Virus record (IMG/VR): IMGVR_UViG_3300028886_000011
Coordinates: 1-49,146 of that record
Length of the DNA: 49,146 nt
Source: a virus
Reading direction: 5' to 3' (one strand)
The notes beneath the pieces are model-generated. The model was not told the origin of the DNA, made no database searches, and worked only from the letters and a program-made list of their open reading frames with translations. Positions 3,331-46,414 of the stretch are shown in pieces. The position numbers and the translations under genes are program-made. Each line of letters begins with the position of its first letter. Position 1 is the stretch's first letter.

Positions 3331-3405
3331 TGGTTGCAGAGGTCGGACTTGAACCGACAATTTTTAGGTTATGAGCCTAACGAGATGCCTTTACTCTACC
3401 CTGCT
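3331..3405 (-). tRNA. tRNA with CAT anticodon (Met, or Ile2 if lysidinylated), CCA encoded
   Basis: Hand-folded cloverleaf. Acceptor AGCAGGG/CTCTGCA, anticodon stem TTAGG/CCTAA with loop CTCATAA, T arm GTCGG-TTCAAGT-CCGAC, 5-nt variable loop, 3' ACCA. Total 75 nt. Confidence 0.85.
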
Positions 3406-3502: not shown

Positions 3503-3778
3503 TTATAACACATTTCTTTTCTTTTTAACAGTCTTTGCACACACAAATTTTTTTAAAATTTTTTGTGTATTTTGTACATTATTTTCAAGTTCAAAAACTT
3601 TAAGTGCAAGTTTTCCTTGTTTTTTCAAGTATGACATCGATATATTCATTTTTTCGGCTGTTTGCTCTTGCGTCATGCCTTTGATGTACCTGTATATGAG
3701 CAAGTCCATCAATTCGGGGTTGTAAACACGCTGTATTTTCCCCCCCCCGACTTCCAATAAATATTCCTTTGAACTCAC
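3503..3778 (-). CDS. Sigma-70 region-4-like HTH regulator (candidate late-gene activator)
   Basis: LIYRYIKGMTQEQTAEKMNISMSYLKKQ resembles a sigma r4 / LuxR-type HTH. It sits just upstream of the tRNA and packaging genes, as RinA/ArpU-type activators do. Contains a G9 run (3740-3748) encoding GGG. Confidence 0.55.
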   Translation of the reverse strand: MSSKEYLLEVGGGKIQRVYNPELMDLLIYRYIKGMTQEQTAEKMNISMSYLKKQGKLALKVFELENNVQNTQKILKKFVCAKTVKKKRNVL

Positions 3779-3895
3779 CTTTGACCAAACTCCTTTTTAA
3801 ATGTGTCTCAGACACGCTGTAATGCCCCGTATTTGCATTTTCCGAGTGAGGGAATATAATTTCATACCCTCACTCAAAAACGCTCTAAAAACGGC

Positions 3896-4312
3896 TTATT
3901 TCAGCAGTTCGGGATTGTCGTGGACGTTGCCTATAACTTCAACGTCACCATTCCAAACTCCAACAACTTCAAAATCGTTCAACTGTTTGCATTCTTCAAA
4001 CGTTTCACCGAAAGACAACAAGAACTGCCCTCTGTCATATAAAACAACCGCCTTTTGATTGAGTGAGCCATTGCCGAAATATTCGCTTTTACCTTTGACA
4101 ATATCTCCCTCAAAAATCTTTGTGCCGTTCTTGTCGTTCAAGCCTGTAAACTGTCCAATGGTTTTAGTATTAACAATTTCCGTTGAATACCCGTCTATAT
4201 CACAGATATAATAAATAAAAGCATTTTTATCAAAAGTATCTTTATCCACGAGCAACGAGCCATATATCCATGTTGAATTTTCGTTTCGACCTCTGAAAAG
4301 TATCTCTCTCAT
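3896..4312 (-). CDS. YopX family protein
   Basis: MREILFRGRN...WIYGSLL... and the C-terminal VIGNVHDNPELL are typical of YopX. Confidence 0.7.
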   Translation of the reverse strand: MREILFRGRNENSTWIYGSLLVDKDTFDKNAFIYYICDIDGYSTEIVNTKTIGQFTGLNDKNGTKIFEGDIVKGKSEYFGNGSLNQKAVVLYDRGQFLLSFGETFEECKQLNDFEVVGVWNGDVEVIGNVHDNPELLK

Positions 4313-12197: not shown

Positions 12198-12843
12198 AAT
12201 TCATACCTCCGTGTCCGTGCAGATAAATAAATCTGCTGTTTATACCTGCATTTTTTATGATAAAATCATCTGCTTTTGCCTTTGAGAGATGATTTTTCAA
12301 TACGTCTTTTTCATACGCATATTCGCCTTTTGATACCTTTTCGGCAATTCGCTGTTGAATTTCGTTGTCTTCATAATTGGCTTCAATCATATAGAAGTCA
12401 AAATTCGGTGCTATAATGCCGTTGAGGTCGTTTGTATCTGTCGCATAAATGATTTTTTCGCCGTCTTCGGTATAAATTTTATATCCACAATTTTGTACAT
12501 TGTGGTTAAGAGGTATCATTACAAGCGACACAAAATCAATGTAATTGTTTCTGGTATTCGGAGAATACACATCAATTCTCCATTTCTGCACACCGCAAGC
12601 TATCAATTTGTTGATAAGCCACTTACCGCACCCGAAACGGAGTGTCGGGCGTTTTTCGGCAAGTTTTTTTATCGTTGACGGGCAGAAATGGTCGCCGTGT
12701 TCGTGTGTGAGGAGTACCAGTTTCAAGCCCTTGATGTAGGGCTTGATGTCTTTGAACGGTACTCCGCAATCAATCAAGATTTCATCATTGATGATGACTG
12801 CATTTCCCTTTGAGCCTGTGGAGATTATATTATAAGTCATCAA
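12190..12843 (-). CDS. Metallo-beta-lactamase-fold hydrolase
   Basis: HEHGDH motif. Typical partner of phage recombination modules. Confidence 0.75.
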   Translation of the reverse strand: MMTYNIISTGSKGNAVIINDEILIDCGVPFKDIKPYIKGLKLVLLTHEHGDHFCPSTIKKLAEKRPTLRFGCGKWLINKLIACGVQKWRIDVYSPNTRNNYIDFVSLVMIPLNHNVQNCGYKIYTEDGEKIIYATDTNDLNGIIAPNFDFYMIEANYEDNEIQQRIAEKVSKGEYAYEKDVLKNHLSKAKADDFIIKNAGINSRFIYLHGHGGMNFE

Positions 12844-13440
12844 TATTCATCTCCTGTGGCGGTGTTTGCATCTGAACGGGAGTAGGCGGTGTTTCGGGGA
12901 GATTTTCGGGCTGAGGTTCATCAATTTCTGTCGGAACAAAATCGCCGTTTTCCGTCGTGTTTGCCGCTTTATTGTCCACTTCAAACGCTTTTTGCATTTC
13001 GGCTGACATAACGCCCCATTTGCTTATAATTTGACGAAGCATTGTCTTTTTTGCCATGCCGTCAAAATCTTTGTACCAAAATGAAGAATACTTCCACTCG
13101 TCTTTTTCGGGATATTTCTTTGCAAGAAAATCTTCATAGCTGACTTTCGGATACTGACCGCCCGTTGCATTTAACGAAAATGCAGGGCTGTATTTGTCAG
13201 CGTGTTTTAACATCTGCTTTTTAGACCAATACAGCACTTTTTTAAATCCGTTGAGATACTCGAACATCGCGTAATATCCGACGGTTTCAGCCGCCTCACG
13301 TTCATCAAAGTCCTGTATGGGATTGAGTTCAATTTCGTCATCAAAAGGATTGTAGTAACCAAGCTCGCCTTCCTTGATTTCCATAGCATTGATGTGCTTG
13401 TAAAATCCCGAACGTACCGCAAGCTGTATGTAACCTTTAT
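12830..13440 (-). CDS. recT: RecT recombinase, exon 2
   Basis: The frame is open from 13440 (YKGYIQLAVRSGFYKHINAMEIKEGE...FWYKDFDGMAKKTMLRQ). It joins in frame to exon 1. Confidence 0.8.
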
Positions 13441-14392
13441 CATTTATACCAACGATTTACCATTTGTGTTGGATTAGACTATCTCTTCATCTCACAAGAT
13501 GCCGTGCGCTTGGAGTGGTAACTCATCTTCCACTCTACACAGTTACATTCATCACTGTTAGTCGTTACACTACAAGTATCGGTAATGCTTTCCCTTGCAA
13601 GTCTTATATTTACCTTTCAAGTGTCCGCATAACGTAGACAGTCCGTATTTTTCGTTTGCGTCTTTTATAGACTTAAATACTTCGCCTGTCTCAATACAAA
13701 TGACTGGTTTATTACGATAACTATTATCTCTGTGTCGGTCTTTAAGCTTTGCACATCTCTTTTTTATCGTTTCTTGGCTTTGCTTTTTTCCAAGATTTGC
13801 GTTTCTGAGCTTTTCCCTTGTTTCCTCAGAAACACTATGTCCTACCTGCGGCCCTTTAAGATTGTTCTTTATAATCTGAGCTTTTTCTTCTTCTGTTTTG
13901 GAGTCCCATTGTTTTTTCCCGGCTTCTCTCAATTTTTCCTTTGTTTCCTCGCTAAAAGATATTCCGGTAATTCCACGTCCCCCACGCGTCCTGTTATATT
14001 CGGGCTTTAATTTTTCTATCCAAAAAATTTCCCGTTCGTCTAACAGAGACTTGTCACATTCTTCCAAGACTTCAAAAGAGAAATTATCATATCCGTACTT
14101 ATTATACGCACGTTTAAGGCTTTGGTTGGATTCGCTGCAAATATATTTGTGTTCTTTTTTTCTGCGTTGTATATCTACGCTTTGACCGATATATTTTTTT
14201 CCATTTACAAGATTTTTTATTAAGTAAATGCCAGTCATAATGTATCACCTCAAATACATTATAGCACGGTGTTGCCCTTATGTCAATTCTTTTTAGGATA
14301 TAGAGGCTGTGGAGGGTTTCCACCGTTAGCACATAAAACTGTACACCCCTGAGTAATAGGGTTCACACGGTTTTACTTGACCCATTAGGTTA
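13441..14392 (-). mobile_element. Group I intron (952 nt) carrying a GIY-YIG homing endonuclease
   Basis: P1 pairing: CUUGGCU (14399-14393) with GGUCAAG (14382-14376), giving a U.G wobble at the 5' splice site. Terminal G at 13441. Splicing restores GYKG and the reading frame. The endonuclease ORF is internal. Confidence 0.75.
13570..14238 (-). CDS. GIY-YIG homing endonuclease with NUMOD3 repeats (I-TevI-like)
   Basis: GIYLIKN...KYIGQS...R...EH...N, then SEETKEKLR and SEETREKLRNANLGKK repeats. Own RBS: GAGGTGA. Confidence 0.85.
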   Translation of the reverse strand: MTGIYLIKNLVNGKKYIGQSVDIQRRKKEHKYICSESNQSLKRAYNKYGYDNFSFEVLEECDKSLLDEREIFWIEKLKPEYNRTRGGRGITGISFSEETKEKLREAGKKQWDSKTEEEKAQIIKNNLKGPQVGHSVSEETREKLRNANLGKKQSQETIKKRCAKLKDRHRDNSYRNKPVICIETGEVFKSIKDANEKYGLSTLCGHLKGKYKTCKGKHYRYL

Positions 14393-14711
14393 AGCCAAGA
14401 ATAAACTGAGCATCATAATGTTCAGGAATGCCGTTTTTGGCTTTGACCTTGAACGGCACCATATAATACTGCCCCAGCTGAGGGGAGTGTGCAAGGTTAA
14501 GGCTTTCGGCAAGAAGTGAGGCACTGAGAATAGTGTTAGCCTCGCATTTCTGCAAATCGGGATTTGTCGCAACGGCTGACATGATAGCAGCTGTATATCT
14601 CTCAACTTTTTTCTTATCTCCGAGTGTCTGAGAGATAAACTTTTGGTAAGTAGGTGTAGATATTGCCGTTGAAAATTTGGGTTTCTGCATAGCCATCTGA
14701 TTGTTATTCAT
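14393..14711 (-). CDS. recT: RecT recombinase, exon 1
   Basis: ATG 14711 follows GGAGGT. ...AIMSAVATNPDLQKCEANTILSASLLAESLNLAHSPQLGQYYMVPF...AQFILG matches the RecT N-terminal region. Confidence 0.8.
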
Positions 14712-15543
14712 TTTTGTTACCTCCGTTTTTGAATTCAATATTATTTTCTATGAGAAAGGCTTTTATCGCCCTTAACTGTTCGAGTGTGCCCGTGACGGTG
14801 AAAGTCATGCTGTAAACAGGCATTTCGGAAATATTTTCTTCGGGAGTTTCCTCGACAACGGGCGGTGCAAGCTGTGTGACATTTTCTTCCACTTCACGTT
14901 TGATATTTTCCTGTTGGGTGTAGGTTTGAGCTGTCTGCTGTGCCTTTTCAATATCACGTTTTCTTTGATTGACAGACATTCTTGCCTGTGCAAGATTAAG
15001 GCAGTTCATATATTCGGCAAGGATTTCATCACCGTCATTTGTCTGAGAAATGCTGTCAACGTCGTTTTTTATGCGGTCTATGACGGAAATAATTTCTTTT
15101 TCAAGTGCAGTTTGCGATTTTGTAATCGTGACTTTCGGAATAACCCTGTCGACATCAAGCCAGTTCAAACAATATGCCGTAATAAGTTCCTGAGCATAAG
15201 CCTTGACTTTATCGTATTTTTCGGCTTTCTGCACATCTTCGACATCATCAATTTTCTTTTTAAGAACGGCATCGGCTTCCGTAAAGGGAATTTTGATGTA
15301 CTTGTCATACAGAACCTTGAAGTCTCTAAGGGGCTTTTCATATTCGGCTGTGCGTTCTTTACGCTCGGTTTCGTACTCCTCGAATTTTTTTTTGAGTTCG
15401 GTACGGGTTTTCTTGACAGCCTGCTTTGTATCTTCCGTGCAAGCCATAGCCTTGGCAATTTCGATTTTATCTGCACATTCCCTTGCAATTTTCTGTAAAT
15501 TCTGTTCCGTAACCGACAAATCCGTGATTGAAATGATATTCAT
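14704..15543 (-). CDS. DUF1351-like protein (recT-associated)
   Basis: Coiled-coil-rich 279-aa protein directly upstream of recT, as in many Firmicutes siphophages. ATG 15543 follows AGGAGAGG. Confidence 0.5.
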   Translation of the reverse strand: MNIISITDLSVTEQNLQKIARECADKIEIAKAMACTEDTKQAVKKTRTELKKKFEEYETERKERTAEYEKPLRDFKVLYDKYIKIPFTEADAVLKKKIDDVEDVQKAEKYDKVKAYAQELITAYCLNWLDVDRVIPKVTITKSQTALEKEIISVIDRIKNDVDSISQTNDGDEILAEYMNCLNLAQARMSVNQRKRDIEKAQQTAQTYTQQENIKREVEENVTQLAPPVVEETPEENISEMPVYSMTFTVTGTLEQLRAIKAFLIENNIEFKNGGNKNE

Positions 15544-33199: not shown

Positions 33200-35652
33200 G
33201 CGAACACAACTCCTCTCCGTGACATTTTTTCGGTGAATATCTGCATTAACAGGTCTGCGTTATCTTCCATATCCTCTCTGTTTCCGCTGACATTATCAAT
33301 ATTAAAATTAAAAATGTATGTTGCACTGTTACCCGATTTTTCGCTGATTTTGTCTGCTACTCTGTCAATCCATTGTGTATTTTGAGATAACGGCACGACA
33401 GCTTCATCTCCGTCACCCTCCAAATATCCGACTTGACCTTTTTTCAAAACGCCGCCCTGTGCAAGCCTCGGAAGTGTGACTGTTGGGATTGCGGAAATGC
33501 TAACACCAGGCAAATTATTTATCAAATCTATTGCACCGTTTACAGCATTCGGAATAAGGTTTAATGCACCCTCAACCGTCCATATAACCGCATTGATAGC
33601 CGTCTTAAACGCTCCGCCTATTGCTTCTGCCACCTTCGTACCGATAGTTGAAAACGTTGAAACAATACCGTCCCAAAGTCCACCGAAAAATTCACCGACT
33701 TTTGAAAATACACCTGTTATATCATTCCATATTTTTTTAGCACCTTCGACTATTCTGTCTATTAGCCACTGAAAACCACCAACAACGCCATTCCACAAAT
33801 CAGAAAACCAACGTCCGATAGCTTGTAAGCCCTCTTGATACCGCTCGCACAAAAACTCAAATCCCCATACCAGCTTGTCCCAGTATGTAATAACCTCGAC
33901 AATTACAGCAATTAACGCTACAACACCTGCAATTATAATTCCGACAGGATTTGCCGCCCATATTGCGTTTAATATGCCCCCACTTGTCGCAACTGCTTGC
34001 TGCACTGCGTTTACTATCGTCATGACAGTGTGATATGCTTTAATGCCTGCGGTAAGGCTTGCTATTAAAGTTATAATTGATGTCAACGTTGCAACCGCTG
34101 TTTTATTTTTGCCTATATCATCAAGTGTTTTTGCAAGACCAGATAAAAACTCGGAAAAAGCACCACCGTAAAAATCGACAATGTGGACTAAAAAATTATC
34201 CCATATAGACTTTAACGCCGCCCCCACGCTTTCGCCGATTGAAGCAATTAGTGTAAACGCCGATTTAATCACATCAAAAACAGGCTCTAAAACAGGAAAT
34301 TGGTCTTGCAAGGCATTTACCAAGCTGTCAAAAATCTGTCCGACTGCATCAACCAAAAGGGGTAAATTTTCAATAATGCTTGAAATTATGGCACTGAATA
34401 ACTGCACACCTATATCAACAAATTGAGGAATGTTTTTGATTATTTCAGCAGTTACCTTTTTGATAAGTTCTTTCAGCACACTTATCATTTCTTTGGTATT
34501 GCCTGTTCTTATCTTTTGCGTTAAATCACTCAAAGAATTTGCACCAAGTTTGACAAATTGGTTTAATGTAGGTGTAAGTTTATCGGATATTGCTATTTGT
34601 GCTCCCTCTAATGCCGACTTGAAAAGAGTTATATTACCTGTGAGATTATCAAGTTGAGTATTTGCCATTTCCCCCGCTGAATTTTTAGCTTCATCAATAG
34701 CATTAGAAACTTCATTCCATCTATCGGTATTGGTTGCAAGCAAAGCATTCACGGATTTTAAATCAACTTTGTTGAATATATCGCTCAATGCTTTTGTTTG
34801 GTCGCCCTGTGACATTGTAGAAAGTGTTTTGTTGAAGTCGGCAAATATTGATTGCAAATCCCTCATATTGCCTTGACCATCAAAAACTTCAACACTTAAT
34901 TTTTTTATAGCCTTTGCGGCTGTGTTTGTTGGTGCTGAAAGTGCAAGAATGATGTTTCTTAAAGCAGTACCACCCTCTGAACCCTTTACGCCATTATCCG
35001 CAAGCAAACCAAGAACAGTTGAAAGTTCGGTTGTACCCCCTGCAAGCGTTTTAGCTGTGCCGCCAACCGTCAACATAGCCTCTCCCAACTGTGAAACACT
35101 TGTGTTTGTTTTTGAGCTTGCTTTTGCCATTTGGTTAACAAGTTTTTCAGTTTGTTTAAGCGATAATCCTAACGCTGACTGTGTATCAGTAACCATGTCG
35201 GAGGCGGTCGCTAAATCCATACCGCCTGCCGCTGCAAGATTAAGGACATTCGGCAACATTTTCATTGATGTTTCAGCATCGTAACTTGCTAATGCCATAT
35301 AATTTAACGCTTCTGCCGCCTGACTTGCTGAAAAGGCTGTTTCACTACCCATTTTTTGAGCAAACTCACGCAAATTCTGAATATTATCAACAGTAGTCCC
35401 CATAGTTGCGGCAACCTGTGACATAGCACTGTCAAACTGCTGACCAACAGATATTGAGTTTTTAGCAAATCCCACTGCTGCTGTTGTTGTTGCACCTATC
35501 CCTGCAAGTGTCAATTTCCCAACTTTTGCCATTACATTTTTTATTTTTTCGCTGAAATTTTCTGCTTGTTTTGACGCTTTTACAAGTTTTTCATCGAAAT
35601 CAGACTTATCCATCATCAGCTTTGCAAAAAGTTCAAATACATTTACTGCCAT
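33196..35652 (-). CDS. Tape measure protein
   Basis: 818 aa. TP901-type core AFSASQAAEALNYMALASYDAETSMKMLPNVLNLAAAGGMDLATASDMVTD, plus helical and TM-rich segments. Confidence 0.9.
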   Translation of the reverse strand: MAVNVFELFAKLMMDKSDFDEKLVKASKQAENFSEKIKNVMAKVGKLTLAGIGATTTAAVGFAKNSISVGQQFDSAMSQVAATMGTTVDNIQNLREFAQKMGSETAFSASQAAEALNYMALASYDAETSMKMLPNVLNLAAAGGMDLATASDMVTDTQSALGLSLKQTEKLVNQMAKASSKTNTSVSQLGEAMLTVGGTAKTLAGGTTELSTVLGLLADNGVKGSEGGTALRNIILALSAPTNTAAKAIKKLSVEVFDGQGNMRDLQSIFADFNKTLSTMSQGDQTKALSDIFNKVDLKSVNALLATNTDRWNEVSNAIDEAKNSAGEMANTQLDNLTGNITLFKSALEGAQIAISDKLTPTLNQFVKLGANSLSDLTQKIRTGNTKEMISVLKELIKKVTAEIIKNIPQFVDIGVQLFSAIISSIIENLPLLVDAVGQIFDSLVNALQDQFPVLEPVFDVIKSAFTLIASIGESVGAALKSIWDNFLVHIVDFYGGAFSEFLSGLAKTLDDIGKNKTAVATLTSIITLIASLTAGIKAYHTVMTIVNAVQQAVATSGGILNAIWAANPVGIIIAGVVALIAVIVEVITYWDKLVWGFEFLCERYQEGLQAIGRWFSDLWNGVVGGFQWLIDRIVEGAKKIWNDITGVFSKVGEFFGGLWDGIVSTFSTIGTKVAEAIGGAFKTAINAVIWTVEGALNLIPNAVNGAIDLINNLPGVSISAIPTVTLPRLAQGGVLKKGQVGYLEGDGDEAVVPLSQNTQWIDRVADKISEKSGNSATYIFNFNIDNVSGNREDMEDNADLLMQIFTEKMSRRGVVFA

Positions 35653-44958: not shown

Positions 44959-45336
44959 TCAATCTATATTGCAGTGGTTCATTCTTTCGGTCAGTTTTCC
45001 CAACTCTTTTTGAATGTCTGTGATTTGCTGTTGCTGTTGTTTTATACAGTTGCAAAGTATCAACACTTCTTTGTCAACAAAATCGGTGTTTTCGACTTTA
45101 TCTATCAACTTCAATATGTTGTCTTTCTGCTTGTCTTTGCTTTCTTCGTACAAATACCAATCTTCACACATCAAGCAGTAATCAACAGGCAGTATTTTAA
45201 CTTCATATTCTTCGCCGTCTTGCCCGTCACGTTTAAAAAGTCTATCGGCTTTCATGTAGTAAAATGTCGGATAGATTTCGGCTCTTGTTATGCGTTTGCC
45301 GTTTCTCATAGCAAACAAGGCTTGTTCAAATTTCAT
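44959..45336 (-). CDS. DUF2829 (Tad2-like) protein with a coiled-coil tail
   Basis: MKFEQALFAMRNGKRITR ... CEDWYLY, then QQQQQITDIQKELGKLTERMNHCNID. Confidence 0.65.
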   Translation of the reverse strand: MKFEQALFAMRNGKRITRAEIYPTFYYMKADRLFKRDGQDGEEYEVKILPVDYCLMCEDWYLYEESKDKQKDNILKLIDKVENTDFVDKEVLILCNCIKQQQQQITDIQKELGKLTERMNHCNID

Positions 45337-45350
45337 TCATTTTCACCCTT

Positions 45351-45713
45351 TCAGATGTTGCAATAGTTCATTCTCTCGTTCAAGTCTTTTACTTCATCTT
45401 GCAATTCTTTAATTTGCTGTTGCAGTTGCTCAACAACGCAATTATACAACGGCGAATTGTTTTTGTTGGCGTAATCGCCATTTCTGATTTCTTCTGCTTT
45501 TCGACCAGTTTCTTCCATTGGAGTGTAAACACTCCAATTATCAGACAATATATAATCTATACTCAACACAGTCATTATTTCGTCGGGTTCGTTATAGTGG
45601 GCAGCATAAATATTCATGCCGTCTTTTATGTAAAAATATTTTGCAAAACACTTATCCCAAACGTGAACTTTAAGTCCTTTTCTCATATACTGTAACGCTT
45701 GTTCAAATTTCAC
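45351..45713 (-). CDS. DUF2829 (Tad2-like) protein with a coiled-coil tail
   Basis: (GTG)KFEQALQYMRKGLKVHV ... SDNWSVY, then LQQQIKELQDEVKDLNERMNYCNI. Confidence 0.65.
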   Translation of the reverse strand: MKFEQALQYMRKGLKVHVWDKCFAKYFYIKDGMNIYAAHYNEPDEIMTVLSIDYILSDNWSVYTPMEETGRKAEEIRNGDYANKNNSPLYNCVVEQLQQQIKELQDEVKDLNERMNYCNI

Positions 45714-45716
45714 TGT

Positions 45717-45968
45717 TTACACTCCTTTCGGTTTGTGCAATGAAAGGAAAGCCACTCTCCATTTCAATAAGCTTACTTTATCTTTTAATTCTTGGATTTG
45801 CCTTTGTGCGTCCTTTGATGTTGACAACTGCATTTTTTCACGTTCAGCAACGCTTTTGTCAATCAAGTATTGGATATGCTTTTCGATTTCTTTGTAACTC
45901 TCTTTGTTGTCGGTTTTAAATCTTATCTCATAATCGCCACCGCCGACAATGGTGTTATACTCAATCAT
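45717..45968 (-). CDS. Hypothetical coiled-coil protein
   Basis: 83-aa ORF. Confidence 0.5.
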   Translation of the reverse strand: MIEYNTIVGGGDYEIRFKTDNKESYKEIEKHIQYLIDKSVAEREKMQLSTSKDAQRQIQELKDKVSLLKWRVAFLSLHKPKGV

Positions 45969-45980
45969 TGTTGCACTCCT

Positions 45981-46232
45981 TTATTCAATAACTGTCGTTT
46001 CAAATTCCTCTATTTCCCATTTGCAAGTGTTTTTGTATTCTTCAAGCAAACACCAATCATCAAGAAGCATTATCTCCGTGCCTATATATTCACACCAAAA
46101 TTCTGTTTCATCATAGCTATTGTGCTGATATATTTTACCGTCTTTGACATAATAGTAAAAATACGGTGGAAGCGATTGTCTTGTTACTTCTTTACCGTCT
46201 TTCATAGCTTTTAAAGCCTGTTCAAAAGTCAT
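45981..46232 (-). CDS. DUF2829 (Tad2-like) protein, short form
   Basis: MTFEQALKAMKDGKEVTR ... LDDWCLLEE. ATG follows GAGGAG. Confidence 0.65.
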   Translation of the reverse strand: MTFEQALKAMKDGKEVTRQSLPPYFYYYVKDGKIYQHNSYDETEFWCEYIGTEIMLLDDWCLLEEYKNTCKWEIEEFETTVIE

Positions 46233-46237
46233 TACTA

Positions 46238-46414
46238 TCACTCCTCGTAATATCCCGATATTGCGTACATACTGAAACGCATAGTATCTGATAATTTGTT
46301 TTGAGTTTTTGCTTTACTGTTTACAAGTTTGCATATATAGAACTCGCAATTATCACACTCTCTTATTATTTCGTCTTTGGTGCTTATAATACCGTCTTTC
46401 ATGCACAAAAACAT
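46238..46414 (-). CDS. Small Cys-containing protein ending in SGYYEE
   Basis: ATG 46414 follows GAGGAG. The C-terminus is shared with the next gene upstream. Confidence 0.5.
   Translation of the reverse strand: MFLCMKDGIISTKDEIIRECDNCEFYICKLVNSKAKTQNKLSDTMRFSMYAISGYYEE

Follow-up and report, generated by a model that had tools for sequence, protein, structure and literature searches.

How can a full-length RecT protein be read from a phage gene that lies in two pieces? This question is raised by the IMG/VR virus record IMGVR_UViG_3300028886_000011, whose 49,146 nucleotides (nt) make up the stretch of DNA analysed here (the window). Reading of the minus strand over positions 12700-14850, with its open reading frames (ORFs) listed, placed recT at 14711-14393 and 13440-12830, on either side of a 952-nt insert, very probably a T4-like group I intron (IA2 type) that is mobile, its removal by splicing and its spread by homing being predicted from sequence features. 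These coordinates and an in-frame join giving 309 amino acids (aa) had been proposed in a preliminary description of the stretch, and every one of them was confirmed on the minus strand, the two exons adding up to 319 + 611 = 930 nt, i.e. 309 codons plus the stop. T14393 is the last base of exon 1 (...AQFILG + T) and exon 2 opens with AT AAA GGT at 13440, to read (Y)KGYIQLAVRSG; joining T14393 to A13440 regains the GYKG motif, as that description had also stated. If the exon-1 frame is continued into the insert it reads Leu-Thr-stop (TTA ACC TAA), in agreement with the stop codon announced two codons in, and gene callers report exon 1 as a 108-aa orphan ORF ending in GLT and a stop, and exon 2 as an ORF of 184 aa. 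In exon 2 no in-frame ATG occurs before the one at 13384, which lies downstream of 19 conserved codons at 13440-13385 (YKGYIQLAVRSGFYKHINA); these codons are therefore translatable only after the pieces have been joined in the RNA. The predicted ligated-exon junction would read ...UUCUUGGCU^AUAAAGGUUAC... in RNA, or TTCTTGGCT^ATAAAGGTTAC as DNA letters (carets mark the junction here and below). The joined 309-aa protein matches the Pfam RecT family PF03837 over residues 38-264, spanning the junction (120.7 bits, 7.7e-35), and PHROG 148, "RecT-like ssDNA annealing protein" (4.6e-67).

Comparison of the spliced product with uninterrupted RecT homologues, a check suggested by the preliminary description, came out in favour of the join: at 81 of 81 related loci on viral contigs a single tblastn segment bridges the junction with no gap, and GYKG is present in 80 of these uninterrupted loci. 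The RecT protein of Faecalibacterium phage Roos, also uninterrupted and 56% identical, aligns gap-free over the junction (AQFVLGYKGYIQLALRSG versus AQFILGYKGYIQLAVRSG in the joined protein), and a large protein collection holds full-length uninterrupted RecT sequences with up to 92% identity at 100% coverage. Intron-less recT alleles occur at 92-94% aa identity within the same gene order as in the window; thus, P0001 and P0003 have a single recT of 307 or 317 aa in the order DUF1351, RecT, Lactamase_B_2, SSB, RusA, Lin1244_N, IstB, which they share with the window, and intron-less sites include those of L192 (GTCTTGGGATATAAGGGTTAC) and L193. The exact 222-aa protein encoded within the insert was found in 31 blocks of the collection, located between two recT pieces everywhere shown, and the split arrangement is seen in 8/8 of the places shown, out of 24 contigs from independent assemblies. 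The Pfam match, the gap-free homologues and the repeated split arrangement put the interruption of recT far beyond chance.

The insert starts with UAACC and ends in ...UAUAAAUG, its last nucleotide being the G at 13441 that had been predicted. An intein is ruled out by the stop codons after the junction, and a group II intron is improbable, because the only ORF of the insert is of the GIY-YIG type and not a reverse transcriptase and because Rfam gave no group II match there. The proposed search with the Rfam group I intron model did not deliver a significant hit: with RF00028 the insert scored 15.8 bits (E 0.35), below the gathering score of 50, and this sub-threshold alignment still marks GAUGAAGAGAUAGUCUAA as J8/7-P7. 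At gathering score the whole window gave tRNA only, and a permissive E-value applied to the halves of the insert gave a group I match of 11.2 bits and none in the 5' half. The score is low because the P6 loop, with the ORF, extends over 683 nt and a two-hairpin insertion separates P3 from J3/4; ORF-less relatives reach 31-44 bits (E 4e-4 to 5e-8). Moreover, the gathering score of RF00028 serves detection and does not define a group I intron biochemically.

Homology to known introns was established by nucleotide comparison. In blastn searches the 96 nt at 13567-13472 share 78-79% identity (E 8e-12) with a sequence present in dozens of T4-like phages. In phage SA20RB this sequence separates the two parts of the gene for anaerobic ribonucleotide reductase and is closely followed by a homing endonuclease gene, and RF00028 recognises it as a group I intron (72.4 bits); it is the nrdD (sunY) intron. 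Twelve viral contigs contain the 19-mer GATGAAGAGATAGTCTAAT, every time within the same group I-type core. A pattern taken from the 5' half of the present intron (TGAACCC-N-GGGGTGT-N-CTAACGGTG) has 92 matches among viral contigs, 38 of them compact ORF-less introns, and for 56 matches, in the loci that were fetched, the P7 strands, which are not part of the pattern, stand at the expected distance downstream. Profiles made from 20 relatives and run with nhmmer match only 14385-14264 (E 1.9e-16) and 13570-13467 (E 8.5e-21), and R1, a covariance model of the 3' half built from 20 relatives with the window sequence excluded, has its sole match in the 49-kb window at 13571-13435, over the full model length (94.3 bits, E 3.6e-14) and with all 16 pairs standard.

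The core P3-P4-P5-P6-P7-P8, including the P3/P7 pseudoknot, could be located in the insert (Table 1). With RNAalifold, run on an ordinary MAFFT alignment of the 3' halves, P7.2 was recovered in part only, and the structure was therefore named by hand and then tested. A first hand fold with P2 as GUAAAAC/GUUUUAU and P3 as UGUGC/GCACG, which relatives do not conserve, was dropped because they covary for CCGUGUG/CGCACGG instead. This latter P3 is the long-range helix that closes across the ORF; it forms 7/7 pairs in the window intron and in 33/40 unique relatives at anchor-fixed positions, with 25 sequence variants in its four variable pairs and compensatory changes at 5 of its 7 pairs, mismatched partners attaining 7/7 in only 7% of trials. 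On an alignment of the ORF-deleted window intron with 20 ORF-less relatives (A3; 37 named pairs, those of the P3/P7 pseudoknot among them), pairing holds in 96.1% of cells, as against 33-46% once the partners are shifted by one to three columns; both sides have changed in 19 pairs, and 0/500 shuffles attain any of five measures. The helices that covary on A3 are P3, P3b, P7.2 and P8, and P5 and P6 are known from the window sequence and by analogy only. The P1 helix of the preliminary description was upheld, CUUGGCU pairing with GGUCAAG so that U(-1) faces G in a wobble pair, with the guide covarying with the exon; the P3-P9 core, the internal promoter and the breadth of the lineage described below are additions to it. 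What defines the IA2 subgroup of group I introns is a pair of additional hairpins (P7.1 and P7.2) that separate the 5' strand of P7 from the 3' strand of P3; the insert has both at that place. The same definition is given in a review (PMC3984707). The two-hairpin insertion between P3 and J3/4, present with the pattern in the 92 viral-contig stretches, is absent from the T4-type nrdD intron. Its motif is GAACCC-N8-GGGGUGU followed by a covarying stem (14329-14362; also in L086-L183), and no name for it within the P3.1/P3.2 nomenclature was found in the literature.

The same recT site is occupied elsewhere. When RecT was compared by tblastn with the intron-bearing loci, about twenty of them turned out to be recT genes interrupted between residues 106 and 108, with RecT proteins 28-60% identical. 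Every exon 1 that could be located at this site ends in ...F-x-(L/I/V/M)-G + T, and all the same-site introns end in G right before A(T/C)AA(A/G)GG. In 20 same-site introns the guide tracks the exon (CTTGGCT/GGTCAAG, CTTGGGT/GCTCAAG, ATGGGGT/GCCCCA), and this guide-exon covariation in P1 therefore fixes the 5' splice site. Their lengths are 288 nt or 795-948 nt, the longer ones carrying GIY-YIG ORFs 24-58% identical to that of the window and always in P6. The 288-nt version (L123, 7485-7772) has no ORF, sits at the same recT codon of a RecT 56-60% identical, and is aligned from P1 to P9 by RF00028 (40.7 bits, E 6.4e-9). A scaffold of Megasphaera micronuciformis F0359 (L196, NZ_GL538186.1, about 360-1230) contains a recT exon 1 and the 5' end of a same-site intron (86% over 79 nt) with a GIY-YIG ORF 30% identical to ours, exon 2 falling at the edge of the stretch fetched. 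The same-site lineage extends to at least 20 viral contigs and one Megasphaera genome. L086 (12369-12702 and 13623-13949) and L124 each hold two introns of the subfamily about 1.2 kb apart on one contig, and in L114 (621-976) a different group I intron (85.5 bits, RF00028) lies beside one of the subfamily.

Sequence divergence at the locus is strikingly uneven. Among four recT alleles with exon identities of 59-95%, the intron differs at 4/952 nt (99.6% identical); exon synonymous divergence (dS) is 0.98 between the window and L185 and 0.61 between the window and L189, with ratios of non-synonymous to synonymous divergence (dN/dS) of 0.13 and 0.12, respectively, and it is saturated for L188. 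Conceptual splicing gives an intact RecT of 295-319 aa in all four diverged alleles. The intron-plus alleles all read CTTGGCT^ATAAAGGTTACATACAGCT and the nearest intron-less alleles TTGGGAT^ATAAGGG or TTGGGTT^ACAAGGG, the differences being synonymous and clustered at the junction. An intron conserved far above its exons, together with such clustered differences, is the pattern to be expected from recent endonuclease-driven homing with short co-conversion. Near-identical introns, intron-less alleles and relatives at the same codon together point to an active, widespread homing intron.

The presumed agent of this mobility is the 222-aa protein, which matches Pfam GIY-YIG PF01541 (41.4 bits, cut-off 22.6; 1.7e-10) and, over its whole length, PHROG 314 "homing endonuclease" (2.9e-38). 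The free-standing ORF with its own ribosome-binding site (RBS) that had been announced inside the insert is there, as a Pfam-supported GIY-YIG frame behind GAGGTG; from the GIY-YIG/NUMOD3 assignment made for it the first half stood, and the second is marginal, NUMOD3 PF07460 scoring 20.2 bits against a cut-off of 20.4, with two SxETxxKLR repeats visible in the sequence. Residues 2-82 align to the I-TevI catalytic domain (1LN0/1MK0, E 5e-10), and GIY, YIG, the Arg of the RR position, the Glu (DEREIFWI) and the Asn (EYN) are all present in the 1LN0 alignment; identity to the homing endonucleases of isolated phages is at most 36%. Upstream lies a putative sigma-70 promoter interwoven with the ribozyme core: its -35 hexamer lies within an expansion of about 25 nt in the P5 loop which the other recT-site introns lack (loops of 6-9 nt), its spacer is the P4 3' strand (P4') and its -10 hexamer overlaps the P6 5' strand. 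Use of this promoter is a prediction.

On these grounds we propose that recT is transcribed as a precursor in which the stop codon two codons into the intron would halt ribosomes. The RNA would fold into P1 (CUUGGCU + GGUCAAG), the P3/P7 pseudoknot, P4-P6, P7.1, P7.2, P8 and P9; a free guanosine bound in P7 would attack after U14393, and the freed exon would then attack after G13441, so that GGC-U^AU-AAA is joined and the 309-aa RecT with its GYKG motif can be made. An I-TevI-like enzyme would be produced from the P6 loop with the help of its own RBS and of the perfect sigma-70 promoter in the P5 loop, P4' and P6. It would cut intron-less recT near the GYKG codons, an enzyme of the I-TevI type being expected to cleave some 15-25 nt upstream of the insertion site, and repair from the intron-carrying copy would transfer the intron to the new allele along with a few bases of adjoining exon (homing).

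Several results weigh against a spliced and mobile group I intron. No tested member of this intron subfamily reaches the RF00028 gathering score; the relatives behind the 5' profile were found by a pattern from this very intron, which makes the 5' E-value circular in part; the lack of any variation in P4, P7 and the first extra hairpin leaves these uninformative on structure; and the 25-mer of the joined junction is absent from the JGI metagenome or metatranscriptome contigs. Besides, the near-identity of the intron copies leaves splicing competence in these alleles without long-term selection behind it. It could accordingly be argued that the intron is dead or splicing-impaired, a recent homing invader that has made recT effectively a pseudogene in these phages; the near-identical copies do imply a recent invasion, and the promoter-bearing enlarged P5 loop, unique to this variant, might perturb folding. 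We nevertheless regard this as improbable, given that the core helices are all intact with standard pairs, that the consensus junction nucleotides are present, that P1 matches the exon perfectly and that the spliced ORF is intact in the four diverged alleles mentioned above. The same-site lineage also persists over RecT proteins only 28-60% identical and endonucleases only 24-58% identical, and such persistence argues for long-term tolerance and hence for splicing.

Still less probable, to a degree that we would give it very little weight, is a gene in pieces, in which a free-standing endonuclease gene would have split recT into two polypeptides that reassemble with no RNA splicing. The mobE-split nrdA of Aeromonas phage Aeh1 is reportedly a precedent, the 108-aa and 184-aa ORFs annotated by the callers do flank an endonuclease gene, and this gene has its own promoter and RBS. 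Nonetheless, such an arrangement would leave the 19 codons of YKGYIQLAVRSGFYKHINA untranslated in spite of their match to uninterrupted homologues; the non-coding flanks of the endonuclease ORF are a covarying ribozyme core, and the ORF-less 288-nt version interrupts the same codon in L123. That the insert is a chimeric metagenome join, or its likeness to introns a chance similarity, can practically be dismissed: the window is indeed identical to a metagenome-assembled contig, but the 24 contigs behind the split arrangement come from differing samples and assemblers (ENA, Logan), and the arrangement is also found in IMG/VR contigs and in the Megasphaera isolate genome. A group I intron that is spliced from recT and moves by homing thus remains the account that we favour, and the features assigned to it are collected in Table 1.

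Table 1. Features of the interrupted recT locus in the window, in the order in which they are read on the minus strand; ribozyme elements are predicted.
Feature	Position	Strand	Remarks
recT exon 1	14393..14711	-	codons 1-106 and first base of Tyr107; starts with ATG 14711
P1 5' strand, exon CUUGGCU	14393..14399	-	splice-site U is U14393, wobble-paired (U.G)
Predicted group I intron, IA2-like, ORF in P6 loop	13441..14392	-	952 nt
Internal guide sequence GGUCAAG (P1 3' strand)	14376..14382	-	complementary to exon CUUGGCU
P3 5' strand CCGUGUG	14364..14370	-	pairs 7/7 with 13508-13502
First extra hairpin ACCCU...AGGGGU	14345..14362 (14362-14358/14350-14345)	-	invariant
Second extra hairpin (P3b) GUACA...UGUGC	14329..14344 (14344-14340/14333-14329)	-	3 covarying pairs
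J3/4 (UAA) and P4 5' strand CGGUG (14325-14321)	14321..14328	-	
P5 (CCCU/AGGG), enlarged loop	14275..14316 (14316-14313/14278-14275)	-	loop carries -35 hexamer
Putative sigma-70 promoter TTGACA-17 nt-TATAAT, TG-extended -10	14258..14286	-	12/12 consensus; function predicted
P4 3' strand CACCG(UG)	14265..14271 (paired 14271-14267)	-	
P6 5' strand CUAUAA	14259..14264	-	pairs with UUGUAG 13575-13570; overlaps -10 hexamer
RBS GAGGTG of endonuclease ORF	14246..14251	-	7 nt before ATG; read from sequence
GIY-YIG homing endonuclease ORF, 222 aa (669 nt)	13570..14238	-	stop UAG within P6 3' strand 13575-13570
P7 5' strand GACUA	13559..13563	-	pairs with UAGUC 13481-13477
P7.1 hairpin CAGU-GAUGAAUGUA-ACUG	13540..13557 (13557-13554/13543-13540)	-	compensatory versus nrdD CCGU...ACGG
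P7.2 hairpin GAGUGG...CCACUC	13513..13535 (13535-13530/13518-13513)	-	covaries
P3 3' strand CGCACGG	13502..13508	-	covariation
P8 hairpin CAUCU-UGUG-AGAUG	13488..13501 (13501-13497/13492-13488)	-	covaries
J8/7 (AAGAGA) and P7 3' strand UAGUC	13477..13487	-	
P9 hairpin CCAAC/GUUGG (13472-13468/13453-13449) and 3' tail UAUAAAUG	13441..13472	-	terminal G13441
recT exon 2	12830..13440	-	remainder of Tyr107 to codon 309, and stop

The window belongs to a siphovirus-type phage: it encodes a large terminase together with an SPP1-type portal, a Mu F-like protein, a tape-measure protein and a tail endopeptidase. When 25 kb of it were compared by Megablast with 50,697 phage records, no match was returned, i.e. 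no close relative in that set, and the RecT relatives that bear names come from Clostridia and Oscillospiraceae assemblies. Between its terminase and portal genes, at 44959-46241 (minus strand), three tandem paralogous small ORFs (MKFEQAL../MTFEQAL..) were noticed; against the Pfam Tad2-like family (Thoeris anti-defence) one of them scores 26.8 bits, which reaches the threshold, the second a weak 18.2, and the third does not match. The minus strand of the window also holds a tRNA gene at 3334-3405 (56.1 bits; anticodon CAU as read from the alignment) and, at 1890-2939, a 349-aa ORF fusing a ParB N-terminal domain to DUF4417 (246.7 bits). A viral contig that had been fetched for its intron (L092) encodes at 3712-4290 (minus strand) a ROOL RNA (RF03087, 330 bits) beside tRNA genes.

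Our findings do not overturn the current understanding of phage introns, their additions being modest: a new homing site, the two-hairpin feature and a promoter embedded in the core. With recT, a recombination gene joins the conserved phage genes in which homing introns have settled, and the element sits in an annealing protein that might help to repair the break made for its own homing. The promoter within P5, P4' and P6 would have a ribozyme core sharing its sequence with the expression signals of a passenger gene, and 4/952 differences in the intron against exons 59-95% identical, with junction flanks that seem to have been co-converted, bear the signature of ongoing horizontal spread. There is also a practical side. 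Gene callers split recT into orphans of 108 and 184 aa, so that phage recombinases are probably mis-annotated in many metagenomic contigs, and since RecT proteins are mined for recombineering the true product, predicted to be the spliced 309-aa protein, matters. No published recT group I intron was found in the literature, in a search that covered few subscription journals. It is tempting to speculate, with the odds rather against it, that the GYKG codons are a previously undescribed and heavily used site, that the two-hairpin subfamily may represent an undescribed subclass, and that a promoter was gained which freed endonuclease expression from that of recT.

That conserved phage genes harbour group I introns with GIY-YIG endonucleases is well known (reviewed in PMC3984707), and the closest parallel to the recT intron is the T4-type nrdD (sunY) intron. 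Both have an IA2-type core with P7.1 and P7.2 and no P2, the nucleotide identity given above covers the P7-P7.1-P7.2-P3'-P8 block, and the J8/7-P7 sequence is GAUGAAGA(U/G)AUAGUCUAAUC; compensatory changes distinguish them in P7.1 (CCGU/ACGG in nrdD, CAGU/ACUG in recT) and in P7.2. They differ in host gene, in the ORF, which follows the core in nrdD and occupies the P6 loop in recT, in the extra P3-J3/4 hairpins, found only in the recT intron, and in their Rfam scores, the nrdD intron lying above the threshold (72.4 bits) and the recT intron below. In gene architecture the recT intron rather resembles the T4 td intron, whose ORF is reportedly looped out of P6 behind an early in-frame stop codon and whose endonuclease is said to be made from an intron-internal promoter, with homing that co-converts flanking exon sequence. 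The likeness to I-TevI, its GIY-YIG endonuclease, is limited to the N-terminal catalytic domain; the host gene is another one, the putative promoter follows the sigma-70 consensus and not that of T4 middle or late promoters, and the host is, unlike T4, a siphovirus-like phage whose close relatives encode an integrase. The group I intron in recA of Bacillus anthracis (Ko et al. 2002, cited in PMC3984707) reportedly likewise occupies a conserved site of a homologous-recombination gene in a Gram-positive lineage, a likeness by description only; by the same description it is chromosomal and not phage-borne, and its host gene, recA, is unrelated to the single-strand-annealing RecT. Finally, Geobacillus virus E3 (KP144388) has in its tape-measure gene an intron of the same subfamily, 78.8% identical in blastn to both halves of the ORF-deleted recT intron; it is about 310 nt long, has no ORF, lies in another host gene and carries no intron annotation. 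The intron gap, at 2499-2808 of the fetched stretch (L195; about 33538-33847), splits GP42 and GP43, the N- and C-terminal tape-measure proteins.

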